Below, in pieces: positions 11,635 through 47,869 of a stretch of DNA of 64,000 bases (the first letter of the stretch is position 1; each line of letters starts with the position of its first letter). This stretch comes from Escherichia coli (GTDB lineage Bacteria > Pseudomonadota > Gammaproteobacteria > Enterobacterales > Enterobacteriaceae), in assembly GCF_013122565.1 (NCBI RefSeq), contig NZ_CP053258.1. The stretch is one strand, 5' to 3'. A program made the translations under genes and the position numbers. The notes below the pieces were generated by a model. The model had not been told where the DNA came from, made no database searches, and was given only the letters and a program-made list of their open reading frames with translations.

Positions 11635-11680
11635 ATAACCGTGATCGATCGGTTATTATTAATCGATCGATCACGGTTAT
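11635..11680. promoter_or_regulatory. perfect 17-bp inverted repeat (ataaccgtgatcgatcg / cgatcgatcacggttat) with 12-bp AT spacer
   Basis: Seen directly; lies between PTS operon start and rlmC 3' end; could be an operator or rlmC terminator hairpin. Confidence 0.5.
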
Positions 11681-11728
11681 TATTTGGAATGGATGTATGC
11701 CGAAGTGATATTGATTTGAGTGATGTAT

Positions 11729-12856: not shown

Positions 12857-12896
12857 ACATTGACCTTCACATCATCAGGGGCGACGATTATACACA

Positions 12897-13385: not shown

Positions 13386-13444
13386 GAAAACAATGCCGCG
13401 ACATGCGCGGCATTATGTAGCCAGGTTGGCAAATTTTAGTGTCT

Positions 13445-14290: not shown

Positions 14291-15240
14291 CCGTGTTCTC
14301 CCACGCTTTTTTGCTGGTGTTTGTGAAACCACATTATCGGCACAATTAGCAGCAGCAACATGATGATCGCTACCGCCGAGGCCACCGGCCAGTCGCGGTT
14401 ATTGAAAAACTCTTGCCATAGCACGCGCCCGATCATGATGCTGTCCGGGCCACCGAGCAGTTCCGGGATCACAAACTCGCCCACAGCCGGGATAAACACC
14501 AGCATCGATCCGGCAATAATCCCGCCTTTGGTCAGCGGCACGATCACAGTAAAGAACGTTTTCAGCGGTCGAGCGCCGAGATCCAGTGCTGCTTCCACCA
14601 GCGAATAATCAATACGAATCAACGCGGTATAAATCGGCAGTACCATAAACGGCACGTAAGCGTAAACAATGCCGATATAAACGGCCAGATTGGTATGCAG
14701 AATGGTCAGCGGTTGATCGATAACCCCCAGCCACAGCAGAAAATTATTCAGCACACCGTTGTTTTTTAATATTCCCATCCAGGCGTAGACACGAATCAGA
14801 AACGAGGTCCACGACGGCAGGATCACCAGTAGTAATAAGATATTACGGGTCGAAGGCTTACTGTGCGCCACCGCCCACGCCAGCGGATAGCCGATCAGTA
14901 AACAGCAAATAGTCGAAATCGCCGCCACCTGTAACGACTGGAGATAAGCATCAAAATAGAGCGGATCGTCGGTCAGTTGCAGAAAATTACCGAGATTAAG
15001 AGTGATGGAAAGTTGCCCGTCAGCCCACTCCATCAGTTCGGTATAAGGTGGAATAGCGCGCGCCATCTCTGCCAGGCTTATTTTAAAGACAATCAGAAAT
15101 GGCAGCAGAAACAGCAAGATCAACCAGATATACGGCAACGCAATGACCAGTTTGCGCCCATGCTTCATTTGCAGCTGCGACAACCACAGCTTAAATCCGC
15201 CCGGCGGTTTCGACTGGGCAGCAGGTTCAAGTGTACTCAT
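14287..15240 (-). CDS. potH: putrescine ABC transporter permease PotH
   Basis: 317-aa membrane ORF; pot operon order. Confidence 0.9.
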   Translation of the reverse strand: MSTLEPAAQSKPPGGFKLWLSQLQMKHGRKLVIALPYIWLILLFLLPFLIVFKISLAEMARAIPPYTELMEWADGQLSITLNLGNFLQLTDDPLYFDAYLQSLQVAAISTICCLLIGYPLAWAVAHSKPSTRNILLLLVILPSWTSFLIRVYAWMGILKNNGVLNNFLLWLGVIDQPLTILHTNLAVYIGIVYAYVPFMVLPIYTALIRIDYSLVEAALDLGARPLKTFFTVIVPLTKGGIIAGSMLVFIPAVGEFVIPELLGGPDSIMIGRVLWQEFFNNRDWPVASAVAIIMLLLLIVPIMWFHKHQQKSVGEHG

Positions 15241-15249
15241 CTTTGCTCC

Positions 15250-16383
15250 TTAAACCGTCAGCACCACACAGCTGTCCACTTCCCAGCACAAACGCACTTC
15301 GTCGCCCCAGGTGGGTAACCCTTTACGATGACGATGGGCGTTTTGTAGCTGGGCGCTAATCATCTGCCCACTTTTCAGACGAACGTGATACACCGAAAGA
15401 TCGCCGAGATAGGCAATGTGTATCACCTCCCCCACCGCGAAGTTACAACCATTGGCGGGCGGCTCTTCGCAAAGCATGATTTTTTCCGGACGCAGCGCTA
15501 CGTGTACCGGCACGTTATCGACCACTGAAGCATCCGCATCGACTTTCAATGGATGCACCAGTCCCGGCGAATAAAGCACCAGACCATCATCCTGACGCTC
15601 TTTGAGTACACCTTCAAAGACATTAACCGAACCGATAAATTCAGCGCTGTAGCGGGTGGTCGGATGCTCGTAGATCTCTTCCGGTTCGCCAATCTGGACA
15701 AATTTCCCACGATTCATAATGGCGATACGCCCCGCCATGGTCATCGCCTCTTCCTGATCGTGAGTAACCATCACGCAGGTCACACCGACGCGCTCCAGAA
15801 TATCCACCACTTCAAGCTGCATCCGGTCACGCAGCTTTTTATCCAGCGCGCCCATCGGCTCATCGAGCAGTAATAGTTTCGGGCGCTTGGCAAGGCTTCT
15901 GGCCAGGGCCACACGCTGTCGCTGACCACCGGAAAGCTGATGCGGTTTGCGTTTGGCGAACTCCTGCATATGCACCAGCCCGAGCATCTCATTGACCCGG
16001 CTGGCAATTTCCGCTTTCGGTAGTTTGTCCTGTTTCAGGCCAAAAGCGATGTTCTGTTCCACGGTCATATGCGGAAACAGCGCGTAAGACTGAAACATCA
16101 TATTGATGGGGCGCAGGTAAGGCGGCACCTGTGACAAATCGACGCCATCGAGCATTATCTGCCCGGCAGAAGGTTGTTCAAAACCTGCCAGCATACGCAG
16201 CAGCGTGGACTTGCCACAGCCGGATGCGCCCAGCAGCGCGAATATTTCGCCTTTATAGATGGTCAGGCTGACATCATCCACCGCATGTTGACCATCGTAG
16301 GATTTAGTCAGATTACGGATTTCTAAAAGCGGCGTCAGCGCCTTACGGGTTTTCGCCTGCGGGCGAGGGATAGCGTCATTCAC
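15250..16383 (-). CDS. potG: putrescine ABC transporter ATP-binding protein PotG
   Basis: ABC ATPase motifs (GASGCGKST, LSGGQRQR); probable GTG start giving 377 aa (..NDAIPRPQ..). Confidence 0.88.
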   Translation of the reverse strand: MNDAIPRPQAKTRKALTPLLEIRNLTKSYDGQHAVDDVSLTIYKGEIFALLGASGCGKSTLLRMLAGFEQPSAGQIMLDGVDLSQVPPYLRPINMMFQSYALFPHMTVEQNIAFGLKQDKLPKAEIASRVNEMLGLVHMQEFAKRKPHQLSGGQRQRVALARSLAKRPKLLLLDEPMGALDKKLRDRMQLEVVDILERVGVTCVMVTHDQEEAMTMAGRIAIMNRGKFVQIGEPEEIYEHPTTRYSAEFIGSVNVFEGVLKERQDDGLVLYSPGLVHPLKVDADASVVDNVPVHVALRPEKIMLCEEPPANGCNFAVGEVIHIAYLGDLSVYHVRLKSGQMISAQLQNAHRHRKGLPTWGDEVRLCWEVDSCVVLTV

Positions 16384-23240: not shown

Positions 23241-23384
23241 AACTGAAGTTGCCCTGAAAATGAAATTTTTTTGCACAACCGCAGAACTTTTCCGCAGGGC
23301 ATCAGTCTTAATTAGTGCCACTGCTTTTCTTTGATGTCCCCATTTTGTGGAGCCCATCAACCCCGCCATTTCGGTTCAAGGTTG

Positions 23385-23411
23385 GTGGGTTTTTTGTTGC
23401 CTGAAATTTAT
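23385..23411. repeat. attL core direct repeat gtgggttttttgttgcctgaaatttat
   Basis: 26/27 identical to copy at 58558..58584. Confidence 0.75.
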
Positions 23412-24885: not shown

Positions 24886-25367
24886 GACAGCAGCCCTCCC
24901 ACCGTTTTACTGATATCGCTTAAGGCAGACGTTGCCGTATCCTGCAAATTATTCAGTTGAGTACTGAGATCACCGAACATATCGGACAGGGATTCATCCA
25001 CCCGTTTGAGCGACAGGGTAAACTCAATCCGGCGCGGCATACCATCGCGGAAAAACTCCGTTTTAGTCTGATTCAGTCCCTCAATCACATACATGCCGTA
25101 AATCGTGCCGCTGCCTTCAATCAGGGGCCATGCTTTTCCCTGTTCTGCCATCTGCTCCAGAGCCAGCAACGACAGCCTGCCGCCCGTTATCTCCGGCATA
25201 AGAACACCAGAAAGCGTCAGCATGTCGTTGTCCGGTCCCAGAAACTGCGTGGACGGACGACGGTTTACCCGGCTGTTTGCCGCATGTCGCCAGCTGCGTT
25301 GATACTGCAGTTCCTGATACGGAACGGTGCGCAGCATAAACGCGTACAATCCCAGCACCATCATCAT
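24882..25367 (-). CDS. U: tail protein U
   Basis: 161-aa ORF at P2 gene U position. Confidence 0.8.
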   Translation of the reverse strand: MMMVLGLYAFMLRTVPYQELQYQRSWRHAANSRVNRRPSTQFLGPDNDMLTLSGVLMPEITGGRLSLLALEQMAEQGKAWPLIEGSGTIYGMYVIEGLNQTKTEFFRDGMPRRIEFTLSLKRVDESLSDMFGDLSTQLNNLQDTATSALSDISKTVGGLLS

Positions 25368-28300
25368 GCGTCGTATCCCCCCTGATCGCTGTAGTTACTC
25401 CTGGCTTTTGCCTTCAGCCTGCGTTCACGTTCATCAAGCTGGCGTGCCACCTCCCGCGCAATATCCTGCGCACTTTGTCCTGGCTGCGTCTGAATGATGA
25501 TCTGCGTCGGTGCCTCAATCCGGTGAACGGGCGGCACAGTGGCTGCACGACTCACCATCGCTTCGCCGCCTTTCGCGGGAAGTGCCAAAGGATGCAACGG
25601 TGGAAGTTCTGCAGGCGCGGCAGCAACGCCCATCATTCCGGCAACAACGGCAGCCAGTGCAGCTGTATTTCTCCGGCTGGTCACATTTGCCGGGCCGTTA
25701 ACAATTTCCGGCCCGTTTTCACCGACGATGCCAAACTGCCCGCGCGGGATATAGCCGCCGCTGTCATACATCCCCGCAAAGCCATATCCCCATGACGGAA
25801 AACCACCCGATGGCATCATCACTTTACCGTCTGCATTCACCGTCGCAGGTTGCTGACGCGTCACTCTTTCCGGCAGTTTCGCCTTTGCAGCCTCTTTACT
25901 GACAATGCCGAGTTTCTCCAGCAACCAGGAAACGCCGGATTTCAGGGAGTCCAGCGGATGCATGACCATATTCAGCCCTTCCGCCAGTGCCTCCCCGAAT
26001 CGTCGCCCCATTGCCGCTGCGCTCTGCAGTTCGGCAGAGGTCGACTTAACGGGCGTCAGCAGATCAGTAAACCAGCCCCACAACGCCTGCACTTTGTCGC
26101 CAATCCACTGAAACACAGGCTTAAGTGGTTCGAATGCTGCACTGATGGGACCTGCCGCCGCTTTGAATCCTTCCACCACACCAGCGAGAAATGCGGTGAT
26201 GGGTTGCCAGTATTTCCAGACAACCAGCGCCACGCCCGCCAGTGCAGTAACCACAAGACCTATCGGACTGAGCAGAGCACCTAACAGACCAGATATGGCA
26301 TACAGGGCAACGCGCAGCATCGCCAGCGGACCGGATGCCAGTACTCGCAGCACCGAGCCTGCGGCAGCCAGTCCACCGCGTAGTGCTGCCAGTGGATTCA
26401 TAAACATCACAGCAACAGCACGTAAACCGGATAATCCAGACCGCAACAGTGCAACCGGCACACCTGCTACAGTTTTCAGGACATTCCCCGTCAGTGATGC
26501 CGTGCGGCGCAAAGACGACAACGGCGCAGTAAGTAAACCCGCTGCGTTGCCCGATGAAGCAAGCCCGCGTCGCAGCAGTGCCAGTGGAGCGCCAGCTAAC
26601 CAGGACAACGCGCTGCTGGTTCGTGTTACTGCTGCCGTAACGGAAGATAACGTTTTGATACCCAGCACAGAGAATCCCAGACGGATGACTGCCAGCGGCC
26701 CCAGCACTGCAGCCAGCGCCACCGCTAAGGTGCCGAGGCCTACGGTAACCGCAGCCACAACAGCAGCTACTTTCATCAGTGTGCCTGTCAGTTCCGGGTT
26801 AGCTTCCACCCAGCGGCGCAACGCCCCCGTGATGCTTTTCACCGTGTACAGAATATCCATCAGCGGCTGGCGCAGCATTTCGCCCAGGCTGCTGAAGGTG
26901 TTCTGCGCTCCGGTTTTGACCAGCAACCACTGAGCGGAAAGTGAGTCCTTGTTAATGTCGGATTCTTTCTGCATGGAACCGAGCGCATCATTGCCCGCTG
27001 TCAGTTTTAGCTGGCGCTGCAGTTCCGGAAGGTTGTTTGCCAGTTTCGCCGCATCATCACCAAACTCTTTACCAAACAACATGGTCATGGCAGACAGACG
27101 CTTGTCCTGCGGCAGTGCGTTCACCTTCTCCAGCACACGCTGGATAGTTCCCATCGCATCCTTCGTCATCTGCTTTTCAATCACTTCAGGATTGAGTTTC
27201 AGCAGATTCATCCCTTCAAAGAAACTCTTGCTTTGCATGGTGGCAATGGACAATTCACGCACCATCGCGTTTGCTGCACTGGCTGCAACCTCCGGCGCAG
27301 CGCCCAGTGTCAGAAAGGTGGAACCCAGTGCCGCCGCTTTACGATAATCCAGACGGTCAGCCACACCGCCCAGACGTTGCATCACATCAATGATGTCCGC
27401 CCCTTTCGACATGGCGTTATCATCCAGATAGTTCAGCGCATCGCCGAGCTGTTCAATATTGCGGGTTGGTATTTTGTAGAGCTGGGCGATTTTCCCCAGA
27501 CTTTCTGACAGTTCATCCGCTGGCAGCTCAAAGGCTGTTGCCGCCTTTGCTGCCGTACTGGCGAAGGCCAGCAGGTCACGTTTCTGGTCTTCCCAGCTGT
27601 CGTCAGGGTTTGCGACGTTCATGCGCGCACCACCTTCAACCAGTGCAGCGAAGTCCACCGCACCGTTTTCCATCGGCAACTGTTCGCTGGCAGCCTTGAT
27701 GGCATCCTGCATTTCATAAAAACGTGCAGTGCGGTTGCCATTATCGTCACGCAGACCATTGACCTGCTTTGCCACACCTTTCATGGCATCTTCCATGCTG
27801 GTATAGCTTTTTACTGCCGCCATCACTGGCGCACCCATTGCCAGCCCTGCAGCCGTGGTAGTGGCTCCGGCTCCTGCGATGCGATCGCGCACTTCAAGCC
27901 GTCTTGAGTATTGTTCTCTGGCAGCGTTCATCCGTGCCTGTTGTTCACCCAGACGTTTAAGTGCTTTTTGCTGGCCCTCCAGTGCCTGCCTTGTTTCTTC
28001 AGCATTTTTCTTAAGTTCTCGCTGGGCACTACTGAGTTGTCTGGTATCAATCCCTGATTCTTTAAGTGCCTGACGTTGTCTCTGGACCGCCCCCAACAAG
28101 CCGTTATAGGTCTGCTGAAGTTCCTGTACTCGTGTTTTGGCCTGACTGAATAACTTTGCCTGCGCGGCGGTTGGCCTGTTAGTGGCAGCAAATTGTGTGG
28201 CGAGTTTTGCCGCCTCTTCGCGGGCTGCGTTCAGGTTGTTGGCTGTTATGGCTAGTTGCGAGCGCGTCTTGCGAAATTCATCAATTCTGCCAGCCTGCTT

Positions 28301-28441
28301 ATTCAGTTCTTTGAGGCTGTTTCGGGTATTCTGAATTGCGCCAGCCAGCTCTTTCGAACTGGCCTGTGCAGCACGGAATGGGCGGGTGAGTTTGTCAACC
28401 GCATTAAGAATGACCTGCAGGCGCAGGTTATTATCACTCAT
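25364..28441 (-). CDS. T: tail tape measure protein T
   Basis: 1025-aa Ala-rich, coiled-coil and repeat-rich ORF; position between E' and U. Confidence 0.85.
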   Translation of the reverse strand: MSDNNLRLQVILNAVDKLTRPFRAAQASSKELAGAIQNTRNSLKELNKQAGRIDEFRKTRSQLAITANNLNAAREEAAKLATQFAATNRPTAAQAKLFSQAKTRVQELQQTYNGLLGAVQRQRQALKESGIDTRQLSSAQRELKKNAEETRQALEGQQKALKRLGEQQARMNAAREQYSRRLEVRDRIAGAGATTTAAGLAMGAPVMAAVKSYTSMEDAMKGVAKQVNGLRDDNGNRTARFYEMQDAIKAASEQLPMENGAVDFAALVEGGARMNVANPDDSWEDQKRDLLAFASTAAKAATAFELPADELSESLGKIAQLYKIPTRNIEQLGDALNYLDDNAMSKGADIIDVMQRLGGVADRLDYRKAAALGSTFLTLGAAPEVAASAANAMVRELSIATMQSKSFFEGMNLLKLNPEVIEKQMTKDAMGTIQRVLEKVNALPQDKRLSAMTMLFGKEFGDDAAKLANNLPELQRQLKLTAGNDALGSMQKESDINKDSLSAQWLLVKTGAQNTFSSLGEMLRQPLMDILYTVKSITGALRRWVEANPELTGTLMKVAAVVAAVTVGLGTLAVALAAVLGPLAVIRLGFSVLGIKTLSSVTAAVTRTSSALSWLAGAPLALLRRGLASSGNAAGLLTAPLSSLRRTASLTGNVLKTVAGVPVALLRSGLSGLRAVAVMFMNPLAALRGGLAAAGSVLRVLASGPLAMLRVALYAISGLLGALLSPIGLVVTALAGVALVVWKYWQPITAFLAGVVEGFKAAAGPISAAFEPLKPVFQWIGDKVQALWGWFTDLLTPVKSTSAELQSAAAMGRRFGEALAEGLNMVMHPLDSLKSGVSWLLEKLGIVSKEAAKAKLPERVTRQQPATVNADGKVMMPSGGFPSWGYGFAGMYDSGGYIPRGQFGIVGENGPEIVNGPANVTSRRNTAALAAVVAGMMGVAAAPAELPPLHPLALPAKGGEAMVSRAATVPPVHRIEAPTQIIIQTQPGQSAQDIAREVARQLDERERRLKAKARSNYSDQGGYDA

Positions 28442-28870
28442 CGTTGGCCCCGCTTCTCTGAATCGCTTTATACCGCCATTCCAGCACTTCGGTCAGCGGC
28501 ATAACGTCAGTAACGGATGGCGGCCAATGAAAGATGGTGGCGATATCAGCCACCAGATCGTCAACCGTCAGGCTGTCGGTAAACCGGCAAGTACCGACTT
28601 CTTCAACAAAAAAGTGACAACCTCAACCGACATAGCGGTGAGATCTGCCGGGTCCATCTCTGCAATTTCCTGTGCAGTCAGTGCCGGGCTGGAGATGCGG
28701 GGGATCACGGTCATCATCGCGTTCACATCCATATCCATAATAGCCTGCAGGCGTGTACCGCGCAGTGCACCGGACTGCGGTTTACGCAGCACAATTTCGG
28801 TGATTTCCGTTTTACCGCGCTTGATAGGGGTATCCAGTTGAATAGTCTTTTCAGTCTGCTTATCGCTCAT
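28434..28870 (-). CDS. E+E': E+E' fusion product via programmed -1 ribosomal frameshift (predicted)
   Basis: Slippery heptamer T_TTT_TTG (minus strand 28613..28607) in E frame; -1 frame stays open about 57 codons to TGA overlapping T start (gATGAGTGA). Confidence 0.6.
28568..28870 (-). CDS. E: tail assembly chaperone E
   Basis: 100-aa ORF ending ..VVTFLLKKSVLAGLPTA; contains slippery TTTTTTG. Confidence 0.8.
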   Translation of the reverse strand: MSDKQTEKTIQLDTPIKRGKTEITEIVLRKPQSGALRGTRLQAIMDMDVNAMMTVIPRISSPALTAQEIAEMDPADLTAMSVEVVTFLLKKSVLAGLPTA

Positions 28871-28924
28871 TTTTCTGTCCTGTAAATTGGGTTCTGGCGC
28901 GGAATCCCGCGCTGCTCAGATACA

Positions 28925-29440
28925 TCAAAGGCCGAGGGCGTTGCGGTGCGCTTCCATCAGGTCCACGCCGTCCACAATTTCCACCATGTTGATAAGGTCC
29001 ACTTCATAGAGCACCTCACCATTGATAGTCAGCTTCGCGTAGCTGTTGGTACTGGTCACTTTGGTGGTGTTGCTTTCGCCCGTCTTCCACTCGCCGGAAT
29101 CCACTTCTTTGTGACGTCCACGCACCACAAGCTCCACGGCCTGCACTTCTCCGGTATCGTCACGCTGGATAGAGCCGGTAAAGCGCAACTGGATGCCATC
29201 CACCGTGGCTTTGCCCATCTGCTTAAACAGCAGCAGTTCAGTACCACCAATGGAAAATTCTGTGTCCAGCGCACTGTCATCAAGCCCCAGATCCACATCA
29301 ACTGCACCAGGCATTCCGCCGCCGCGATACTTCTCATATTTGCGGGTGAATTTCGGCAGCGTCAGCGACTCTACGATCCCCTGCCAGTTGTTCCCGTCGT
29401 TAAACAGGTTCAGATGTTTTAATTTGCGTGGTAAAGCCAT
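28925..29440 (-). CDS. FII: tail tube protein FII
   Basis: 171-aa ORF at P2 FII position. Confidence 0.85.
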   Translation of the reverse strand: MALPRKLKHLNLFNDGNNWQGIVESLTLPKFTRKYEKYRGGGMPGAVDVDLGLDDSALDTEFSIGGTELLLFKQMGKATVDGIQLRFTGSIQRDDTGEVQAVELVVRGRHKEVDSGEWKTGESNTTKVTSTNSYAKLTINGEVLYEVDLINMVEIVDGVDLMEAHRNALGL

Positions 29441-29449
29441 GTTATCCCC

Positions 29450-30622
29450 TTACGCGCTGACCTGGCTGGCGAAATTCACCAGGTACTGATCGGTGATGCG
29501 CTGGCGCAGCATCAGATTTTCAAGTGGTGGCACTGGCGTGTAGTCATAGTCGATGGTGAGTTTTCCGGCTTTCAGCGTGTCTTTGTCGTTCACTGACTCG
29601 TCCAGCCAGCAATCACCACCAATGAGATAGCCCTGACTGACCAGGCTGCGCATTTTGGCGCGGATGCCCTCGATAATGTCGCGCGCCAGCGACGGGTTCA
29701 GCGGTTTGTCCACCGCCCACATGTGCGCTTCTGCCATTGTGTCCGTCAGCACCTGCGCCGTGCGGGTGTAGTTTTCGAAGGCAAAAAGCGGATCATCGCT
29801 CAGACAGCGGGAACCCCAGAAGCGGAAACCATCCTTGCGCACAAGCGTGGTGACGTCGTTCTGGTTAAGCAGTCCCGCATCGGTTGCCGGGTCCTGCAGA
29901 TCCCAGAACACATCAGCAGAAATTCCGGTGACACCGTTCACGCCCACGTTGGACAGGCTTTTGTGCCACCCGGTCTGCTCATCAATTTTGGCGCGCAGAC
30001 CGAGCGCACGAGCGGTGGCATATGCCGTTGCTTCGGCATTCAGCACCGTGTCCCAGCCAGTAAAGTCAGGCCAGATCAGCATCCCTTCGCGCTGGCTGAA
30101 GTTTTCGCGGTAAGTGATCGCCTCCTGCACTGTCTTGCAGCCATACGCTGACAGGTAAGCAAACCCACGCAGGCTTTGCGCCACTCTCAGCAACTCAGTC
30201 GCAACGGCTTTGTTATCGTGGCCTGGCACGCCGAGAATGCGCGGTTTAACGCCGAGCTGTAACTGGGCAGATAACAGAGCTTTCATGCCTGTTTTTTTAC
30301 CTTCAGCAGTCACTGCGCCGATGATATTGGTCGTGGTTTCTTCTTCCGTTTCCCCCTGCGGCACACGCACAACAACGGTCACGGGTTTTGCCTGGTCAGC
30401 GATGGCATCCAGCGAACGGGCCAGCGTGCCGGACTCACCCGCTTTACCGCTGGCAGTCAGCACATCAGTGATCAGCACGGGTTTATTAAGAGGAAACATT
30501 TTTGCATCGGCATCATCGCCCGTGCAGACCATACCCACGATGGCGGTGCTCACCGTGGTAATGGATCGGGTGCCTTCGTTGACTTCAACAACGCGCACTC
30601 CGTGGTGGTAATCCTGAGCCAT
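29450..30622 (-). CDS. FI: tail sheath protein FI
   Basis: 390-aa ORF at P2 FI position. Confidence 0.85.
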
Positions 30623-30698
30623 AGTGGCGAACCTCCTGATTGGATTAGGCTTCGCCCTATGTTGAAGTGATTGTGCCTGACAAACAGCTAAGCGCAGT

Positions 30699-30716
30699 TG
30701 TGTCGTTATTCACACA
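30699..30716 (-). promoter_or_regulatory. Ogr-type late promoter dyad TGT-N12-ACA upstream of FI operon
   Basis: tgtgtcgttattcacaca about 80 bp upstream of FI start. Confidence 0.5.
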
Positions 30717-30764
30717 AAATAACGGTATTTGTCCGCTTACAGGAAAAATCAAAATAATGCTGAC

Positions 30765-31336
30765 TCAGGGCGATTCATTGTTCTCATTCGCCAGAAATTT
30801 TCTATAAATGGTAGAAACGCCCACATCAAAAATCAGTGCAATACGCTGTCTTGATTCTCCGGCCTCGAGTAAACGTCCAATCTGTGCCCACTGTTCGGTA
30901 GTCAACTTAGGACGGCGTCCACCTACTCTGCCTTTAGCACGAGCTGCAGCCAGCCCTTCCCTGGTACGTTCAACTATCAGTTCGCGTTCCATTTCAGCCA
31001 GGGCACCCATGACATGAAAAAAGAAACGGCCCATTGGGGTACTGGTATCAATACTGTCAGTCAGACTTCTGAAATTCACGCCGCGCTGGCGCAACTCTTC
31101 TATCAGAGTAACAAGATGCGCATACTGCGCCCCAACCTGTCCAGCTTCCAGACAACCAGTGTGTCACCTGCCGATAGTGTCCTGAGCAGCTTTTTCAGCC
31201 CTGGTCTGTCGGACTTGGTGCCACTGATTTTATCCTCAAAAATCCGCTCACATCCCGCGCAGTTCAGTGCATTACGTTGCAAATCGGTGTTCTGGTCATT
31301 TGTTGACACGCGTACATAGCCAATAAGCATGATCAT
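30765..31336 (-). pseudogene. Hin/Gin/Pin-family serine DNA invertase, disrupted by frameshift
   Basis: N-terminal 77-aa ORF (MIMLIGYVRVSTNDQ.. catalytic Ser) ends at in-frame TGA; C-terminal 109 aa continue in another frame; about 1-nt indel near 31117. Confidence 0.7.
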
Positions 31337-31387
31337 CCCTCTGAATAAAAACCGGAGATGATGCCAGTTAGCCGTAATCTCTGCATT

Positions 31388-31412
31388 TTCATAAACGTTG
31401 GTTTGGGAGAAG
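31388..31412. repeat. invertase crossover site (gix/cix-like), right copy
   Basis: ttcataaacgttggtttgggagaag; 15-bp perfect inverted repeat of the site at 33216..33240. Confidence 0.65.
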
Positions 31413-31756
31413 CGGCGAAAAGGGATGTGGGCACAGGAGATAATCAGATACCGGATATGGGAGCATTCGCTTCTGGTTCGGGATGGTTCAGGCTACCAGG
31501 TGGATATATTGTTCAGTTTGGCACTTTTTCAGGAAACACGACCCGCTTTATCAGTGGACACTTCCCTATACCATTCCCTAATCAGCCGATGGTTTCAGTC
31601 AGTGTTATGTCTGATGCCGTTCAGTCAGACCCGTCGATTCCTGCCCCGCAGGTTTTGTCTGTAAATTTTGAACATATCAGTAATTCAGCGTGGCGTGTGG
31701 CAACCAGTGATATCTCACAGCAATACAGATTCAGTTATATTTCGATAGGACGGTAG
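31413..31756 (+). CDS. alternative tail-fibre C-terminal variable segment (silent in this orientation)
   Basis: Plus-strand frame shares ..GLGE.. junction with H at the crossover site; no independent start. Confidence 0.5.
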
Positions 31757-31758
31757 AA

Positions 31759-32199
31759 ATGCAGAAATATATTTTCAGTGCCGATAAAAATGCGTTTTTC
31801 CCTGTGGAGCTTAAAATCGCTTATCAGGAATCCGGCGAATGGCCCGATGATGGAATCGAAATTGACGACACTGTTGCCGCCGAATTTATGAAGGAAGCAC
31901 CAGAAGGAAAATACAGAGGTGTCATCGACGGAATGCCTGCATGGATTGATATTCCACCGCCAACTCATGAGGAACAAATTGCCGCAGCCGAATTGGAAAA
32001 GCAGCAATTGATTAATCAGGTCAACGAATACATAAACAGTAAGCAATGGCCTGGTAAAGCGGCGATTGGTCGCCTGAAAGGTGAGGAACTGGCGCAATAT
32101 AATTTGTGGCTGGATTATCTGGACACACTGGAACTGGTCGATACTTCCGGTGCGCCAGATATTGAATGGCCTACGCCTCCGGCAGTTCAGGCCAGATGA
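31759..32199 (+). CDS. tail fibre assembly protein (alternative, Tfa')
   Basis: 146-aa ORF with conserved Tfa C-terminal pattern (..WPTPP..). Confidence 0.7.
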   Translation: MQKYIFSADKNAFFPVELKIAYQESGEWPDDGIEIDDTVAAEFMKEAPEGKYRGVIDGMPAWIDIPPPTHEEQIAAAELEKQQLINQVNEYINSKQWPGKAAIGRLKGEELAQYNLWLDYLDTLELVDTSGAPDIEWPTPPAVQAR

Positions 32200-32764
32200 C
32201 ATCCGGCGCAGTGCTGGTATCTGTTACCGTCACCGCGTCAATATAATCCAGCACGGCGTTAAGTCGGGTTGTTTCTGCCTGCGTCAGCTTCCGCCCGGCC
32301 TGTAATTTCAGTTGAATCAGACTGATGGAAGCCATTGCAGCATCGATCAGCGACTGGCGCTGTGCTTCTGCCGCGTCTACTGCGGCACTATGCTGTGCCT
32401 CAGTATCTGTCACCCATTTCTCACCATCCCATTTATCGTATGGCGTTAACGGTGAAAGCGTGACATAACCGTCTTTGATGGCACCGATATAATCCACTGT
32501 AACAGCTGCGCCATTTTCTGTTGAGTAAACAGTCTCATTGCGATGGTCTTCTTCATGGCTCCATCCCTTACCCGTAAATACTGCCACTCTTCCCGGAATG
32601 TATTCGCCCGGGTCAATACCAGTGGAACAGGCGGGCATACTTACGCCAGTATTAATATATTCATCAGACCAGCCAGTATATTCATACGTAACTGCCTCAT
32701 AATAAAAACAACGCATATTACCAGGTACTGTAGCCAGCCCATTTTCATCAAAAACAGGTTTCAT
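32171..32764 (-). CDS. G: tail fibre assembly protein G
   Basis: 197-aa ORF directly downstream of H; Tfa-like C-terminus (..VIWPELPEA). Confidence 0.75.
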   Translation of the reverse strand: MKPVFDENGLATVPGNMRCFYYEAVTYEYTGWSDEYINTGVSMPACSTGIDPGEYIPGRVAVFTGKGWSHEEDHRNETVYSTENGAAVTVDYIGAIKDGYVTLSPLTPYDKWDGEKWVTDTEAQHSAAVDAAEAQRQSLIDAAMASISLIQLKLQAGRKLTQAETTRLNAVLDYIDAVTVTDTSTAPDVIWPELPEA

Positions 32765-34278
32765 TATGCAGCCCTCACAATATAATTAAAGGCGATGTTA
32801 CGTGGACGGTTTTCATTAGCTGTTGGCACGACACGAGAGGCGTCGAATCCAAGGTCATCGGTTTTGCCTATAGCAGTTGTGTTATTCGCCATTGTCGCTG
32901 ATCGTGTTCCTGCATCGTAAAAAGCCCCTCTGATTGCATCAAAAGACATGCCGATCCCGCCATCTGCGAATCCCTCAATATTTCTTATTGCATCCCCCTG
33001 TGAAGATAATAATTGTCGCCCGGCATCCACTCCACGTCCGTCATCCCAGCCACGAATAAATTCACCGCGTAAATCAGGCAATTTATTTGTCGGATAAACC
33101 TTTGCCAGTTCCGGGTATTCTTCAGCAGAAAAAGCCGCACCATTGCATTTTAGCCAGCCTGTTGGCGGAGTGGCGGAAGGCCACGGGACAGGCACACCAA
33201 CGGGTAATGCCGAACCTTCTCCCAAACCAAGGTATGCGAGAAGACCAGCCACATCCTTTCCACTCAAATTGGTAAGCGTATTGTCCAGCGGTTGTTTACC
33301 TGCCAGCGCATTAAGCATTGTCGTGGCAAAGTTCGGATCATTCCCCAGTGCCGCCGCCAGTTCGTTCAGTGTATCCAGTGCCGCGGGTGCAGAACCCACC
33401 ATTGCTGCAATCGCTGATTTCACAAAAGCCGTAGTGGCAATCTGTGTATTGTTGACCGACTGCGCCGCCGTGGGGGCTGTTGGCGTTCCGGTGAGTGCCG
33501 GACTCGATAGCGGCGCTTTCAGTGCCAGCGCATTGTTAATGGTGGTACTGAATTTCGGATCATTGTTAATGGCTACAGCTATTTCTTTCAGCGTGTCCAG
33601 CGTGGCTGGCGCACCATTAATAAGAGCCGTCAGTGCCGCCTGAACAAACTCGGTGGTCGCAACCTGCGTGGTGTTATTCCCCGCCGCTGGCGTTGGCGCT
33701 TTGGGTGTCCCGGTAAACGTAGGACTTTCTTTCTGTGCATACTGTGAATGCGGGTCCGGTGCGGCAAGATGTTTTGCCATCTGATCATCTGCGTACACCT
33801 TCAGCTCCAGTACCTTATCATCCACATACTTGCGGGTTGCCAGCACTACGGCAGGGTCGATTTTCAGGGTGATATTGTCCGTGCTGCTGGTAATCAACAC
33901 CATACGCACGGTCTGGGTACGCCCGCTGCCTTCAGCCAGTTGCGGCTTATAACTTTCCGGGCAGTTGCCCACGGCAATCAATGCCCCGGACTCATCAAAC
34001 AGGCCCACTTCACGTATCCACCAACCGCCCTCGTTTTCAGGGATCACCTGTTCAGCAATAATCTGGCTGCTGTTCTGCGGGTCGATATAGAGCATATTCA
34101 GCGCAGCCCGGCGTTTCTCATTTACCAATGCTGTCTGCTTTGCGTCCGGCGTTGGCAATGTTCCACCGCCATCGCCGACCGCCATATGGGTAATTTTTAA
34201 AGGCACACCGAGCGCGGCGGCGCTGGCAAGGTTCGCCGCGCCAATATCCGTCAGCAGGGTATAAAATTTTGTGCTCAT
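32764..34278 (-). CDS. H: tail fibre protein H
   Basis: 504-aa ORF, Ala/Thr-rich repeats; P2 H position. Confidence 0.8.
   Translation of the reverse strand: MSTKFYTLLTDIGAANLASAAALGVPLKITHMAVGDGGGTLPTPDAKQTALVNEKRRAALNMLYIDPQNSSQIIAEQVIPENEGGWWIREVGLFDESGALIAVGNCPESYKPQLAEGSGRTQTVRMVLITSSTDNITLKIDPAVVLATRKYVDDKVLELKVYADDQMAKHLAAPDPHSQYAQKESPTFTGTPKAPTPAAGNNTTQVATTEFVQAALTALINGAPATLDTLKEIAVAINNDPKFSTTINNALALKAPLSSPALTGTPTAPTAAQSVNNTQIATTAFVKSAIAAMVGSAPAALDTLNELAAALGNDPNFATTMLNALAGKQPLDNTLTNLSGKDVAGLLAYLGLGEGSALPVGVPVPWPSATPPTGWLKCNGAAFSAEEYPELAKVYPTNKLPDLRGEFIRGWDDGRGVDAGRQLLSSQGDAIRNIEGFADGGIGMSFDAIRGAFYDAGTRSATMANNTTAIGKTDDLGFDASRVVPTANENRPRNIAFNYIVRAA
33216..33240. repeat. invertase crossover site, left copy inside H
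   Basis: cttctcccaaaccaaggtatgcgag; inverted copy of site at 31388..31412. Confidence 0.65.
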
Positions 34279-34880
34279 GGATTCACTCTCATTGTGTCAA
34301 TAACATGGACCGCCCCACCTTCATGCGCGGTGCCGCCGGAAATAATTGTTTCGTTGATATACGGATAGATCGTGATTTCTTCGCCAAGATAGCTGGCGGC
34401 TCCCACCCAATGCGGGCCGCTGGTCTGCAGGTTGATGGACATGCCGATCATGTGACGGCTACATGGTTTGGCATCGCTTATCAGTCGCTCAAGTTCCAGA
34501 TAGGTATCTTCAGTGATGCCCTGGTCCTGCACGCCGATATCCAGACGAAACGTGCCCGGTGCCTCTCCGGTCTGCCACCACTCAATAATGCGGATCAGAA
34601 AACCGAACGGCTCCACCACCCGCCGCACGGCACTGGTGGTCCCTTTATGCTGATGAATATAAAAAGCATCCTTCACCACCTGGCGCTTGACGCTTTCTGT
34701 CCAGCCCTCGTCCCAGCGATCCACAGAGAACGCCCAGGCGAGATAAGGCAGGAAACTGATCGGACAGGTTGCCGGATTCCACAAGTCACGCAGCGGCACC
34801 TGCAGATCAGAAATCCCGCTACAGGTCTGCGCCAGTCGGCGCTCCAGTGAAGTTGAACCCGGTGGCAGCAGACTATTCAT
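34275..34880 (-). CDS. I: baseplate assembly protein I
   Basis: 201-aa ORF at P2 I position. Confidence 0.8.
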   Translation of the reverse strand: MNSLLPPGSTSLERRLAQTCSGISDLQVPLRDLWNPATCPISFLPYLAWAFSVDRWDEGWTESVKRQVVKDAFYIHQHKGTTSAVRRVVEPFGFLIRIIEWWQTGEAPGTFRLDIGVQDQGITEDTYLELERLISDAKPCSRHMIGMSINLQTSGPHWVGAASYLGEEITIYPYINETIISGGTAHEGGAVHVIDTMRVNP

Positions 34881-35781
34881 CCGTTCCTCCGTTGGTCACG
34901 CTCCACTGCGTACATGATGCCGCCTGCGTTTTGTTCAGAACCACATCCGCCAGCGGAGAAGCCAGTTCCACACGTTGAACACCTTCAACATGCAGCGCGG
35001 CAAAAATAGCACTACGGCGAATATCCCGACCGAGCCGCGTCTGACTGGCGATGTACCTCTGCAGGCTGACTTTTGCCGCTGCCATTACCGGCTCTGCTTC
35101 CGGTCCCGGATAAAGAAAAATGGTGGCTTCCACACGGTACGGGATGATTTCTGCGCTGCGAACCGTCAGACGGTCAGCCACCGGGCGGACGTTCTCACTG
35201 TTCAGGGCTTTCTCCACCACGTCCAGTAAGTCTTTTTCTGCAGTTCCGTCGCCTTCGCGACTCAGGACAGTCAGCACCACCTCTGCAGGTGCCGGACTGG
35301 TTGCACTGGCATCCGCCACCCGACCGTCGGCGCTTCGGGCATGAAATTCATAAGCTGCAGTTGGCCCCGCAACTGAAAGTCCTTCAAAGGCTGCAGGCAC
35401 ACGCAGGCGTAACGCTTCATCACTTTCCATCACAGCCGCAACAGGCGGTACAGCGTCATCATCAGCAGGTGTCACCGTCAGGCGTTTCACGTTGTAGTTG
35501 GCAGCAATTTGGTCAAGGTCTCCGCCCATCGCGTAAGCCACCATCACCGCCTGCGCGGCTTCGTTAATGCGCTGGCGCAGAAGCAATTCACGGTAAGCGT
35601 TCTCCTGCAACAATTTGGTGACGGGTTCAGATTCAAGCTCCAGCGTACGCATCACTGCTTCCTGCTCATCTTTCGGATGAAGCGCCACAAATTCGGCCTT
35701 GCGTTCGGAAAGCAGCGTCTCAAAGTCCGGCACATCCACAATCTGCGGCGCAGGTAACTGCGAAAGGTCAATCACTGCCAT
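34873..35781 (-). CDS. J: baseplate assembly protein J
   Basis: about 302-aa ORF (start at internal Met), P2 J position. Confidence 0.8.
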   Translation of the reverse strand: MAVIDLSQLPAPQIVDVPDFETLLSERKAEFVALHPKDEQEAVMRTLELESEPVTKLLQENAYRELLLRQRINEAAQAVMVAYAMGGDLDQIAANYNVKRLTVTPADDDAVPPVAAVMESDEALRLRVPAAFEGLSVAGPTAAYEFHARSADGRVADASATSPAPAEVVLTVLSREGDGTAEKDLLDVVEKALNSENVRPVADRLTVRSAEIIPYRVEATIFLYPGPEAEPVMAAAKVSLQRYIASQTRLGRDIRRSAIFAALHVEGVQRVELASPLADVVLNKTQAASCTQWSVTNGGTDE

Positions 35782-36127
35782 TCTCTGCTCCTGTTGATAC
35801 GGAAAGGGAAACAGGCACACCGTTATTCCGCCGCCCGGTCAGCTCCACCACCATTGAACCGTCAAAATTGCTGTTGATGGTGATGGAATCCAGCGTCATC
35901 CTTGGCTCCCAGCGACTCAGCGCCACATACACTGCCGACATGACCTGCAGGTGTAATGCCGGATTTTGTGGCTGGTCTATCAGTGCCGACAGCAGGGAAC
36001 CATATTCCCGACGGGCAATGCGGCTACCCTGCGGCGTCAGCAAAATGTCCCGCACCGACTGGCGCAGATGGTCCGTGTCTGTAATAGTTTTTCCGTTGTT
36101 CTGACTCATGCCGATATACAGCGTCAT
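35768..36127 (-). CDS. W: baseplate protein W
   Basis: 119-aa ORF at P2 W position. Confidence 0.8.
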   Translation of the reverse strand: MTLYIGMSQNNGKTITDTDHLRQSVRDILLTPQGSRIARREYGSLLSALIDQPQNPALHLQVMSAVYVALSRWEPRMTLDSITINSNFDGSMVVELTGRRNNGVPVSLSVSTGAENGSD

Positions 36128-36702
36128 ACCGGGCCTCCGGTTGTATCGCCGCCTTTCAGGACGCCAGTATGCTGATGCGCATCAACCACGATCCCGTTAG
36201 AACTCATCGCTCCGCCGCCCTGGGTAACGCCACCATTGATCACAACTTCGCTGTTAATGCGCGTGCGGTCAGCCTCCAGTACAAACTCACTGGTTTTCAG
36301 GGTGATATTGTCAGCGGCCTCAATGACCATGGATTTGATGCCCCTGACATACCAGCGCCCGGTGGCGGGTTCGTATTCAAACCAGCCACCGTCTGGGTAC
36401 TCAACCACGTTGCCGTCCTCAGAGTCTGAAGGTGGTGGAAACTGATTTGAGTAGACAGCAGGCAGGGCAAACGCGGTTTCCAGATTGCCACCCAGGCTGA
36501 ACAGCACAACCTGCTCGCCCACAGACGGTTTCCACCAGGTGCGCGATTTGCCCGCGCGCAGTGTCAGCCAGTTAATCCAGTTGGTTTCGAGGTCGCCCGT
36601 TTTCACCCGACACAGCCAGTTTTCCCGGTCCACTTCGGTGACTACACCTGTGCGAATCAGATTGGTGATAAGGCGCATGATTTCGGTTAGTTGTGCATTC
36701 AT
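36124..36702 (-). CDS. V: baseplate spike protein V
   Basis: 192-aa ORF at P2 V position. Confidence 0.8.
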   Translation of the reverse strand: MNAQLTEIMRLITNLIRTGVVTEVDRENWLCRVKTGDLETNWINWLTLRAGKSRTWWKPSVGEQVVLFSLGGNLETAFALPAVYSNQFPPPSDSEDGNVVEYPDGGWFEYEPATGRWYVRGIKSMVIEAADNITLKTSEFVLEADRTRINSEVVINGGVTQGGGAMSSNGIVVDAHQHTGVLKGGDTTGGPV

Positions 36703-36750
36703 GTCGACGATATTTGCACAAACATATATTGTGGGACATTGAGTCAGAAA

Positions 36751-36768
36751 TGTATGACTTACTACACA
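36751..36768 (-). promoter_or_regulatory. Ogr-type late promoter dyad TGT-N12-ACA upstream of V operon
   Basis: tgtatgacttactacaca about 50 bp upstream of V start. Confidence 0.5.
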
Positions 36769-36795
36769 ATGTTTATCCGCGCAAAGGAGTTACAG

Positions 36796-37701
36796 ATGAC
36801 ACAAATCGGTATCTATGGATATTGCTTCACGAAAGAATTTACTTTTAAAGGAGGGACACTGATACCTCGTTACAAATCCTTTAAGGAACTAAAAGAGAAT
36901 AAATGCGATGGAAGCGAATATGTATTAAGTGGATTTTTCTCTCCCGCACATGCTTCTGAAAACACCGTCACTCAAATAATTTATGATCTTTCAGCTGTTT
37001 TAAGTTTCATTGAACAAAAAAATGTAATCATATCAAACTTCCTAGAGGAACATGAAACACCTGAAAAGTTAGATAATAATTTCCCACTAAAATTGAAGTC
37101 AAAAAGAAAGTCATCACTAGGAATAATTGTTGAAGATTACTTCTCTGAAAAGAGTCGCTCAGCGTTCATTGAGCTTGCGATGGATAAACTTCATAGAAAT
37201 ATTAATTCTCATCAAAACCCTTTTAGAACTGCGTTCTATAAGTCTATATTTTCTTTTAGGGAAAGAATGGACTATGTAGATGTTAAATACTTCCTTAATT
37301 TCTCAGCATTAGAATCCCTGTGCAGATATATCGATAACGAGTCGACATCTAGTTATACACCACAAATAATTACAAAGGTTTTAAAAGATTATGGTTTTAA
37401 TGTATCTAAAGAAGGCAACCCTGTACCACAAAGAAACGTGATTCACTATTGCACGCTTCGAAACTCTCTATTCCACAATGGAAATTATATTGGATACATT
37501 AAGAAAGATGATCCAAGCAGTATCATTAAATTAAGTGATTATTATTCAAATCTAAATTTACTTTTACCTTTAGTATTAATGAAATATATAGGATTCGATG
37601 ATGGATTAATTAACTGGGACTCATGGATAGACTATGAACCATTTCTCGCCCTCAGGCCTAAAAACTTAACTCCATCGAATGGTAAACAATCAATTAGATA
37701 G
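36796..37701 (+). CDS. hypothetical moron protein with Rx4H (HEPN-like) motif
   Basis: 301-aa ORF (MTQIGIYGYCF...), RBS aggag upstream, about 33% GC, opposite strand to flanking tail genes; ..CTLRNSLFHNG.. motif. Confidence 0.6.
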   Translation: MTQIGIYGYCFTKEFTFKGGTLIPRYKSFKELKENKCDGSEYVLSGFFSPAHASENTVTQIIYDLSAVLSFIEQKNVIISNFLEEHETPEKLDNNFPLKLKSKRKSSLGIIVEDYFSEKSRSAFIELAMDKLHRNINSHQNPFRTAFYKSIFSFRERMDYVDVKYFLNFSALESLCRYIDNESTSSYTPQIITKVLKDYGFNVSKEGNPVPQRNVIHYCTLRNSLFHNGNYIGYIKKDDPSSIIKLSDYYSNLNLLLPLVLMKYIGFDDGLINWDSWIDYEPFLALRPKNLTPSNGKQSIR

Positions 37702-46108: not shown

Positions 46109-47869
46109 CTATATGCTGCATATTTTTTTATAATGTTCAAAAACATCTTTAAAAGTGTTGAGTATTATTTCAAAACCACTAAAATCAACTTTTCGTTTTT
46201 TATCCCTAACTACTTTCACAGAGAAAACATGTTTCCCATATTCAGTTTTTGAGTCCCCATCGTTCTTTTTGTTAAATTTTTTACCACCAAGAATAGTTGA
46301 TAATACATCATGAGTAAAAAGATCTTCCATCGCAGTCTGCTCACCAGTAGCACTTAAAGGCGTTAGAATGATATAGAGATTTTTAAAGACATGGATAAAT
46401 CTCATTTTTCTCATTTTATTGGTATCATCGGGGCAGCTCTTAACATTATTTTTAAGGAAATTCAAAATCTCATTAGAACCAGAATCGTTGTCCAATACCA
46501 TGATAACCGGGTGCTTAGGAATGCTTCCATAGTAGCTTGAATATTCATCCATATATCTTTCGATGAATTTTTTAAGATCTGCGCTACCTCCAGACATATT
46601 AATAAAATAACTTGACTTCTCATCAGATTTAAAAATATTCAAGTTGATATCATTTCCTTTACCGTCTGTGCTTTTCTTGAGCAACTCAGGAAATTTGGCA
46701 GAAAGTGAACGAATAGCTGATTTTAAATATACTCGATCAGTTTTGCCTTCTGTCAAGATTGTCGGGGAAGCATGTCCATGAAAAAACTTGTAGTAAATAA
46801 ATTTACTATATGCCTTCTCTCGTACATTCAGCTTTAACCTGTAGTTTTTTAATGTAATATGAATAGGCGCATATTTTTCAGGCTGTTTACTTATTTTATC
46901 TTGTATGTTATTAAATTTATCAATCTGGTCAATAAACCCAAATCTTCCCTCTAGTTTTTCGATACTCCCCACGACTAGCTTACCATCTTCATCAGGTAGC
47001 TTATATTCTCCCTTACTATAAAGTGAATGAGCTAATGCTCTTGTTTTATTCGAATATTTCCTATCAACGTTAACAAATCTATTTATAGTAAGTCCCGTAA
47101 CTTCTTGTCTCGTGGATTTGTACGAGATCCTTGTTTTAGCATCATTAATATCAAAACCAGCACGTTTTATTTCACTGACAAGAATGCTCCCCAAGACAAC
47201 CCCCTCAGGAAGAGATATTGCCAAATCGGTAGGAAATTCTTTTTTATTAGTTGAAAACGTGATGTCATCGGCATAACGACTATATGAACAACCTAAACTC
47301 TTTGCTAATTTAGCTAATCTAATATCCATAATGCTACAAATTAAGTTTGTTATCACTGGAGAACACGGGCTACCCTGAGGCAAACTTCCCTTATAGCATG
47401 CGGCTTTAGCTAAAGTAGTGGCGACAATCGGATTTAATAAGAAATCCCTATTGGATAGGAAGTACCCTCTCACTCGCCCAAAATTAAAGCTTTTGAAAAA
47501 ATCCTTAAGATCAATATTGAGTATTATATTTTTCCCACGATGTCTGAAAGCATTGGAAATTATTGACTTATTTCTTTCAAAACCAAAGGAGTAATTGTTT
47601 TTAATTTTTTTAATTTTGAAAGTTTCATCTCTACACTCCATTAAAAGATCGGCTATTCGTCTTTGGAGATCTTTCAAACTATCTTCTGGCGCAGAAATCA
47701 ATCTGACTCCCTTACCTTTTTTTGGAATAGAGAAATCTTTATACTGATTATCAGTACCAATTCTGTAAAGAATATTCGTTAAAAACACCAACTTAACATC
47801 TAGCAATTTTGCCAAGTCAGCACGAGATGCTGCGACTTTCAAAAGTAGTAATTTAGAAGTTGCGACCAT
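46109..47869 (-). CDS. ret: retron-type reverse transcriptase with C-terminal Toprim-like domain (Ec67/Retron-Eco2-like)
   Basis: 586-aa ORF; RT motifs [12 protein letters not shown] and YADD; C-terminal ..ILTEGKTD.. and ..VLDNDSG.. resemble Toprim E and DxD motifs; about 33% GC. Confidence 0.8.

Follow-up and report, generated by a model that had tools for sequence, protein, structure and literature searches.

An e14-like invertible tail-fibre cassette with a frameshifted invertase gene in a P2-like prophage of Escherichia coli

The described systems closest to the locus reported here are the P segment of e14 in E. coli K-12, with its invertase Pin, and the invertible fibre loci of P2-like prophages. 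The e14 segment is about 1.8 kb long and carries the pairs stfP-tfaP and tfaE-stfE, whose convergent tfa genes overlap by 29 bp, and the invertase gene, pinE, is transcribed away from it. In the P2-like genomes, which include EPEC E2348/69 (Goldberg et al. 2014), ERP001, FG92-1 and phages 500465-1, 500465-2 and Cartapus, an invertase gene sits between the fibre and chaperone genes and FI, the sheath gene, and gene H has two alternative C-termini. Sequencing and PCR have shown that segments of e14 and of P2-like prophages flip in culture (PMC4272514). Similar arrangements are the G segment of Mu, which is 3 kb long and in which a constant Sc is followed by Sv-U or Sv'-U' on opposite strands, and the 4.2-kb C segment of P1, which is served by Cin. 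In Salmonella, Hin flips a promoter together with hin itself. The mechanism in this group of enzymes involves 26-bp sites, a Fis enhancer about 100 bp from a site, which for Hin lies inside the invertase gene, and an invertasome (PMC3798978).

Here, we analysed a 64-kb stretch of E. coli DNA (the window) that carries a P2-like prophage with a segment of this kind (31400..33228, about 1831 bp between site centres) inside its tail-fibre gene H. We consider it very likely that the segment is a two-state, invertase-driven host-range switch of the prophage, a homologue of the e14 P segment that follows the logic of Mu G and P1 C. The segment has a GC content of 45-50%, lower than the 55-58% of the tail genes on either side. 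As now oriented, H (32764-34278, minus strand) encodes 504 aa, and no identical protein was recorded in the protein collection searched. The constant part, residues 1-350 (33229..34278, minus strand), matches Pfam Phage_tail_fib (PF12571; residues 1-150, E=2.9e-64) and phrog_327, a tail protein family. The variable tip in the expressed position, residues 351-504 (32764..33228, minus strand), carries a Collar domain (PF07484; residues 361-408, E=3.9e-14) and is 60% identical to e14 StfE and 97% identical to the cassette of phage SKA5. The start of its 197-aa Tfa chaperone gene (32171..32764, minus strand) overlaps the H stop; this protein belongs to phrog_105, tail fiber assembly (E=2e-83), is 63.5% identical to e14 TfaE, and has an identical counterpart listed with Pfam Caudo_TAP_N and Caudo_TAP. 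On the plus strand lies a silent alternative tip of 118 aa counted from GLGE (31400..31756), with a Gp53-like_C domain (PF21882) that falls at residues 381-468 of the flipped product, H' (E=9e-8). It is followed by a silent 146-aa chaperone, Tfa' (31759..32199, plus strand; phrog_188 tail fiber assembly protein, E=2.6e-62), which is 55% identical to e14 TfaP and 100% identical to its SKA5 counterpart. The tfa' and tfa genes are convergent, their 3' ends overlapping by 29 bp. NCBIfam gave no match to H, to either tip or to the Tfa proteins, and Rfam returned nothing in or near the segment. An earlier reading, made from the sequence alone, had proposed this very content, with the 3' end of H and tfa on one strand and an alternative C-terminus with tfa' on the other. 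The gene content bears this out, and the plus-strand ORFs, whose likeness to tail fibres had been put forward for checking, match Gp53-like_C and, among PHROGs, families of tail fibre and of tail fibre assembly proteins.

The same reading had placed inverted crossover sites with a perfect 15-bp core at the two ends of the segment, and both could be located. The 64-kb window contains the core, CTTCTCCCAAACCAA, in exactly two places, 33216-33230 (plus strand) and 31398-31412 (minus strand); at up to two mismatches 0.11 matches would be expected by chance, and two or more were seen in none of 100 shuffles. A repeat search returned 27-nt arms (31386-31412 and 33216-33242) that are 81% complementary with 1803 nt between them, and, following the 26-bp convention for invertase sites, we place the sites at 31386..31411 and 33217..33242. 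The invertase-proximal site has the reverse complement TTCTCCCAAACC AA CGTTTATGAAAA (26-bp letters of the reverse complement TTCTCCCAAACCAACGTTTATGAAAA), its core dinucleotide being TT at 31398-31399 and hence AA on the minus strand. The distal site, within gene H, reads TTCTCCCAAACC AA GGTATGCGAGAA (26-bp letters TTCTCCCAAACCAAGGTATGCGAGAA), with its core AA at 33229-33230. The two are thus imperfectly palindromic 26-bp sites in inverted orientation, sharing the perfect 15-bp core and an identical central AA dinucleotide, as is typical of the Din family. Comparison with gix, cix and hix had been proposed as a check; both sites follow the cix (P1) and gix (Mu) pattern, the 2-bp core sits where it does in the annotated cix and G-segment boundaries, and the proximal site, in its reverse complement, agrees at all 26 positions with the site next to pin in the E. 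coli K-12 prophage e14 (L004 4606-4631). A search for a third site with up to three mismatches found just these two. With two sites only, the locus is not a shufflon, the arrangement present in one P2-like prophage of EPEC.

The residues GLGE stand at both junctions, as the sequence-only reading had it (residues 351-354 of H and 15-18 of the alternative ORF), and they are encoded by the perfectly repeated inner half-site itself, GGTTTGGGAGAA. Since both cassettes read GLGE from the inner half-site, inversion does not disturb the reading frame: in silico it yields an open, in-frame H' of 468 aa (residues 1-350 of H plus the gp53-like tip), and the gene calls in two flipped relatives, L005 and L012, include one of 468 aa. 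A constant N-terminus is in this way fused in frame to either of two opposed C-termini, each with its own Tfa. The alternative tip also belongs to an ORF (31358-31756, plus strand) whose ATG lies outside the segment and which is annotated in ERP001 as a CDS in its own right ("gp53-like domain-containing protein"), as would be expected if the plus-strand ORFs were independent genes, the repeats chance or remnants, and inversion did not occur. That reading is exceedingly improbable, and the comparative data refute it. The first 14 residues of the ORF correspond to the spacer between invertase and site, fibre similarity begins only at GLGE, the repeat is far beyond chance expectation, and near-identical prophages hold the segment both ways, with breakpoints at the sites.

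The L012 prophage differs from the window by 7 substitutions and one indel over 8.46 kb (99.84% identity), and it carries the segment in the opposite orientation. The segment is likewise inverted in L005 and L006. In all three flipped relatives the breakpoints fall at 31398-31412 and 33216-33233, and collinearity ends at the distal site. The exchange lies within the 15-bp core in L012, and FG92-1 and the second ERP001 copy, both inverted, agree with it in this. Among complete E. coli genomes, at a coverage of at least 80%, the window form was found 20 times and the in-silico flipped form 26 times, the matching genomes holding a median of 2 places per genome. The segment is therefore found in both orientations in this prophage lineage with exchange at the core, and these genome comparisons show that inversion occurs in the lineage.

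In sequence, the nearest relative of the element is the e14 P segment with Pin, and not Mu G. Homology to e14 covers the sites, the invertase and three of the four cassette proteins (55-64%); the inner half-sites are identical, and the size of about 1.8 kb, the gene layout, the extent of the convergent tfa overlap and transcription of the invertase gene away from the segment are all shared. The two differ in that e14 has a Mu-like baseplate whereas the constant fibre and tail module of the window are P2-like (V W J I H ... FI FII E T). In addition, the gp53-like tip is without a match in e14 StfP, so that the cassette set of the window is a variant one; the distal site diverges in its outer half, and the invertase gene of the window is frameshifted. 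The P2-like prophages listed above share the whole context, with 95-99.9% identity to the window and both orientations represented, EPEC being likened by context alone; nothing substantial sets them apart except the frameshifted invertase. P1 resembles the window in its site pattern, its AA core (cixR = TTCTCTTAAACCAAGGTATTGGATAA) and its invertase. Unlike the invertase gene of the window, cin points towards its segment, with cixL overlapping the cin 3' end, and the S and U cassettes are unrelated to those described here, the Tfa C-terminal domain excepted. With Mu G the window shares the constant part followed by alternatives on opposite strands, an invertase transcribed away from the segment, and a spacing of about 86 bp from site to invertase position +19. 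The gix core, however, is GA and the half-sites differ (TTCCTGTAAACC), and by blastp neither Mu S nor Sv' matched the cassettes of the window, the only similarity being that of U' in the Tfa C-terminal domain (about 31% over the last 73 residues). The Mu G-segment likeness drawn in the sequence-only reading consequently holds for architecture and logic but not for kinship, which lies with the e14 P segment and P1 cix. The Mu G segment proper was rejected on the AA core, the cix/e14-type half-sites and the lack of cassette homology to Mu S. Hin belongs to the same recombinase subclass and also acts on 26-bp sites, but the window flips coding cassettes and has its invertase outside the segment.

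Adjoining the segment is, by homology, a gene for a Din-family small serine recombinase (30765-31330, minus strand), a type of enzyme that is usually about 185-190 aa long and combines a Resolvase catalytic domain with a C-terminal HTH. Neither this gene nor its frameshift had figured in the earlier reading. The repaired product shares 84% of its residues with PinE, 78% with Cin and 75% with Gin, and it matches phrog_125, DNA invertase. As sequenced, the gene is interrupted at about 31119/31120 by the loss of 1 nt, which alters ATGCGGCAT to ATGCGCAT on the coding strand and leaves a 75-aa N-terminal fragment and an out-of-frame C-terminal part; the extra G is present in all five homologues at alignment column 227. 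A sigma-70 and terminator scan of 30600-34400 gave promoter-like matches at chance level and no convincing invertase promoter. A single base lost in a GG/CC dinucleotide could be a sequencing or assembly error, the system being in truth autonomous and active, and the nearest relative, L012, does have an intact invertase gene of 188 aa. We nevertheless regard an error as very unlikely. The deletion is the sole net indel against ERP001 over 8.36 kb and the only one in 8.4 kb against two relatives, so the window sequence is not generally indel-prone, and the deletion recurs in a separately assembled Logan contig (L018) built from public reads (SRR29598430) of a strain that may be the same or another.

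The -1 frameshift, after about codon 71, would remove the oligomerisation helix and the DNA-binding domain, and because of this loss the prophage's own enzyme should no longer be able to flip the switch. This copy is thus probably locked in the Collar orientation unless another prophage in the same cell supplies a related invertase in trans. That the switch does still flip here, served by an e14-like Pin or by a Gin/Cin/Fin-type enzyme of another prophage, is possible, although we lean against it. Both sites are intact, the proximal one being identical to that of e14, and E. coli genomes with a match typically hold at least two such loci. Cross-complementation among Hin, Gin, Cin and Pin is well established. 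Goldberg et al. cite Kutsukake 2006 for a second invertase that serves hix (PMC4272514). The L018 contig, which contains the frameshifted gene, ends precisely where the proximal site has its inner edge, and a branch in the assembly graph with two continuations explains this better than does the 15-bp repeat. The same break is equally explicable by a second prophage with the same invertase-side sequence, however, and tblastn with the repaired invertase as query detected no further copy in the 64-kb window.

The 5' part of the invertase gene contains a candidate recombinational enhancer. The P1 record annotates such a Fis enhancer at cin +19..+90, and the homologous stretch of the window (31241..31312, minus strand, invertase nt +19 to +90) is identical to it at 56 of 72 positions and to e14 pinE at 63 of 72. 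From the site centre to invertase +19 the distance is 85.5-86.5 bp in the window, in e14 and in Mu. By analogy, the stretch may act as an enhancer, its conservation being confounded by coding constraint since the same stretch is conserved coding sequence. We therefore picture the two-state switch as follows. A Din-family serine invertase would act on the two inverted 26-bp sites, cutting at the central AA and inverting the 1.83-kb segment, and Fis bound to the enhancer may assist. The late transcript of H would always encode residues 1-350, which in the present state would continue into the Collar tip, with the 197-aa Tfa, and in the flipped state into the gp53-like tip, with the 146-aa Tfa, so that no moving promoter would be required. 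The two tips presumably confer different host ranges.

The segment may have a wider history. Positions 31393-33230 are held in common, at 98.7% identity, with SKA5, a phage with a Mu-like baseplate, in which the segment adjoins an invertase that is only 52.5% identical. Identity to the phages and prophages with Mu-like baseplates (SKA5, L010, L011 and L014) stops inside the 26-bp sites. It could be imagined that the segment is a portable cassette, swapped whole between unrelated tail modules, P2-like and Mu/e14-like, by recombination at the invertase sites and persisting, once its own invertase is lost, as an orphan switch run by the invertases of other prophages. We think this rather unlikely and offer it tentatively. 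It would fit with the ending of identity to SKA5, L010, L011 and L014 in the sites, with the diverged SKA5 invertase and with the break of L018 at a site.

The type of system described here is already known. It is an ordinary phage DNA switch, in which the broken invertase gene is the only unusual point, and its importance beyond correct annotation is small. For annotation, it means that H yields one of two products and that the ORF named, in RefSeq style, a "gp53-like domain-containing protein" forms the silent half of the fibre switch. The broken invertase gene, set against the intact gene and opposite orientation of L012, provides a small natural example of switches that are frozen or dependent on other prophages. 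Such differences could bear on the prediction of host range for phages induced from these prophages, or for tailocins derived from them.

The invertible segment (31400-33228) lies within the tail module of a P2-like prophage, every gene of which is on the minus strand: tape measure (25364-28441), tube (28925-29440), sheath (29450-30622), the invertase gene (30765-31330), the tail-fibre gene H (32764-34278), I (34275-34880), J (34873-35820), W (35768-36127) and V (36124-36702). The prophage occupies the interval from ybjL/RybB to rcdA (ybjK), where E. coli ERP001 also carries an orthologous prophage (95.5% identity over 8.4 kb). The RybB sRNA itself is found at 23320-23398 (+) (Rfam, 104 bits), with ybjL on one side and the D/ogr end of the prophage on the other. 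The host seems to belong to a divergent Escherichia lineage, since none of 5,426 complete E. coli genomes exceeds 97.5% identity to the chromosomal genes potFGHI and rlmC (window 10000-16000).

The sequence-only reading had described inverted sites with a perfect 15-bp core, and this is confirmed: CTTCTCCCAAACCAA has exactly two copies in the 64-kb window, at 33216-33230 (+) and 31398-31412 (-). With up to two mismatches allowed, 0.11 matches are expected by chance, two copies arose in none of 100 shuffles, and a repeat search independently picked up extended arms of 27 nt (81% complementary). Read from the segment interior outward, the 26-bp proximal site on the invertase side (31411 to 31386) is TTCTCCCAAACC-AA-CGTTTATGAAAA, and the distal site (33217 to 33242) is TTCTCCCAAACC-AA-GGTATGCGAGAA; the inner half-sites are identical and the central dinucleotide is shared, while the outer half-sites have diverged. 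No third site is present in the window, even with three mismatches. The distal site spans H codons 346-354; its core dinucleotide belongs to codon L350, and G351-L-G-E354 is encoded by the inner half-site GGTTTGGGAGAA.

In the present state, H encodes 504 residues with an N-terminal Phage_tail_fib domain (residues 1-150) and a Collar domain (361-408), and its stop overlaps the start of tfa, which encodes a 197-aa Tfa (phrog_105, E=2e-83). On the silent strand, GLGE leads into a tip of 118 aa that carries a Gp53-like_C domain, and the next gene encodes Tfa' (146 aa, phrog_188); tfa and tfa' are convergent with a 29-bp overlap. The proposed gene content, a variable H end plus tfa opposite an alternative C-terminus plus tfa', is borne out by these ORF and domain matches, and GLGE is indeed encoded at both junctions. 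In-silico inversion of 31400-33228 yields H' as one open frame of 468 aa with Tfa' downstream; therefore the ORF at 31358-31756, a separate 'gp53-like domain-containing protein' in RefSeq-type annotation, is the silent cassette plus 14 fortuitous spacer codons.

Several comparative lines indicate that the segment inverts. The native arrangement is found at 80% query cover or more in 20 complete E. coli genomes and the in-silico flipped arrangement in 26; as the segment makes up 51% of the query, such cover is impossible for a record with the wrong orientation. We regard L012 (GCA_021121335.1) as the most telling case: 7 substitutions and 1 indel over 8.46 kb separate this related prophage from the window, yet it holds the segment in the opposite orientation, and encodes the 468-aa H' and an intact 188-aa invertase. 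The related FG92-1, and likewise an error-rich second copy with which the ERP001 record closes, align collinearly with the window on both flanks and have 31398-33233 inverted, the blocks overlapping solely in the repeat core. The circular ERP001 record (NZ_CP063214.1; loci L001, L006 and L009) begins and ends within this prophage, the partial second copy carries many frameshifts, and the two copies hold the segment in opposite orientations with right flanks 100% identical over 4,085 bp. The second copy is probably an assembly artefact capturing both states of one culture. Two public runs also contain short-read contigs of 1,817 bp (L017) and 1,837 bp (L016) that are nothing but a related segment bounded by the crossover cores (exact bounds of the first, TTGGTTTGG... 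and ...CCAAACCAA), the expected assembly-graph signature of a segment flipping, with a branch at both sites. Whole-genome sequencing of E. coli found the segment of the K-12 prophage e14 and two loci in EPEC P2-like prophages to be invertible in culture, with PCR confirmation for e14 and one of the P2-like loci (Goldberg et al., PMC4272514).

The invertase gene of the window lacks one G in ATGCGGCAT relative to five homologues (alignment column 227; window ~31119/31120), and therefore reads as a 75-aa fragment ending ...RSMRILLL-stop, the rest of the gene being out of frame. The catalytic serine region is retained; because the oligomerisation helix and HTH DNA-binding domain are missing, the fragment should be inactive, judging from the domain structure of the Hin family (PMC3798978). 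The deletion is probably a real, recent mutation and not an error, since it is the only net indel relative to ERP001 over 8.36 kb and the only indel relative to L012, and recurs with an identical 75-aa product in L018 (SRR29598430_308, window 28103-31412), a separately assembled contig with 99.94% identity to the window over 3,310 bp and 0 gaps. L018 terminates at the inner edge of the proximal site, and its first base (C) agrees with the Collar-cassette junction, not with that of the window. This end hints at an assembly branch, caused either by the presence of both orientations or by a second similar locus. At window 30793, a Pro-to-Leu change relative to the L012 allele lies near the invertase C-terminus (KFPANE to KFLANE). 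No other invertase is encoded in the 64-kb window. This copy may be frozen in the Collar orientation or may be flipped in trans.

Sites and invertases were compared directly on the e14, P1 and Mu sequence records. The proximal site is identical (26/26) to the pin-proximal site of e14 (MG1655), whose distal site is TTCTCCCAAACCAAGGTTTTCGAGAG; in P1, cixR is TTCTCTTAAACCAAGGTATTGGATAA and cixL (reverse complement) is TTCTCTTAAACCAAGGTTTAGGATTG, with the annotated crossover at AA as in the window, whereas Mu gix (TTCCTGTAAACCGAGGTTTTGGATAA) has a GA core. Once repaired, the invertase has 84% identity to PinE, 78% to Cin and 75% to Gin. The stretch matching the annotated P1 enhancer (cin +19 to +90) is identical at 56/72 positions to P1 and 63/72 to e14, and in the window, e14 and Mu alike, position +19 of the invertase gene lies 85.5-86.5 bp from the proximal-site centre. 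This stretch may act as an enhancer, but the catalytic N-terminus, itself conserved, is encoded in it as well. Identity to e14 is 60% for the Collar tip (StfE), 63.5% for Tfa (TfaE) and 55% for Tfa' (TfaP), and the two e14 tfa genes are likewise convergent with an overlap. Neither Mu S nor Sv' matches a window cassette, and U' is matched by the C-terminal Tfa domain alone. The Mu G-type reading thus holds for the switch logic and mechanism but not for sequence: by descent the system is a relative of e14 P and P1 cix, in a P2-like tail module.

The fibre cassette also appears in other tail contexts. In SKA5, a phage with a Mu/e14-type baseplate, 31393-33230 is the sole stretch shared with the window (98.7% identity); there it is the gp53-like cassette that follows on from the constant fibre part, and the invertase, with only 52.5% identity, sits on the opposite side of the segment. 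At three further loci with Mu-like baseplates (L010, L011 and L014), similarity to the window likewise ends within the distal site, and the GC content of the segment is 45-50% versus 55-58% in the P2-like tail genes. Horizontal exchange of fibre cassettes at such sites is reportedly a long-standing view, ascribed to Sandmeier (1994) and Haggard-Ljungquist (1992), and the boundaries and GC content seen here are consistent with it.

The interval separating the baseplate gene V from the tail-completion gene S looks like a hotspot for cargo, because the orthologous ERP001 prophage is without the island found here (V-S gap 70 bp) and the corresponding position in FG92-1 is taken by a DUF2971 gene. 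In the window, this 30-34% GC island holds a 336-aa ORF (36691-37701, +) with a hit to phrog_4373 (function unknown, E=2e-111) and none in PADLOC or NCBIfam. Adjoining the portal and terminase genes of the prophage, 46109-47869 (-) encodes a reverse transcriptase of 586 aa that includes a Toprim domain and matches PADLOC RT-Toprim_I-C (retron type I-C, E=6e-213); Rfam detects no msr/msd RNA there at the gathering threshold. With a repressor-like gene (55055-55651) on one side and the prophage integrase (57431-58486) on the other, the gene at 55672-57348 (+) counts as a further defence-type cargo gene of the prophage, the second; its 558-aa product hits PD-Lambda-1, a defence candidate in PADLOC (E=3e-120).

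The original observation is confirmed and its interpretation supported with two refinements, namely that the system is of the e14/cix type by sequence and that its cis invertase is frameshifted. The switch system is already known, and near-identical copies of it are common in E. coli.
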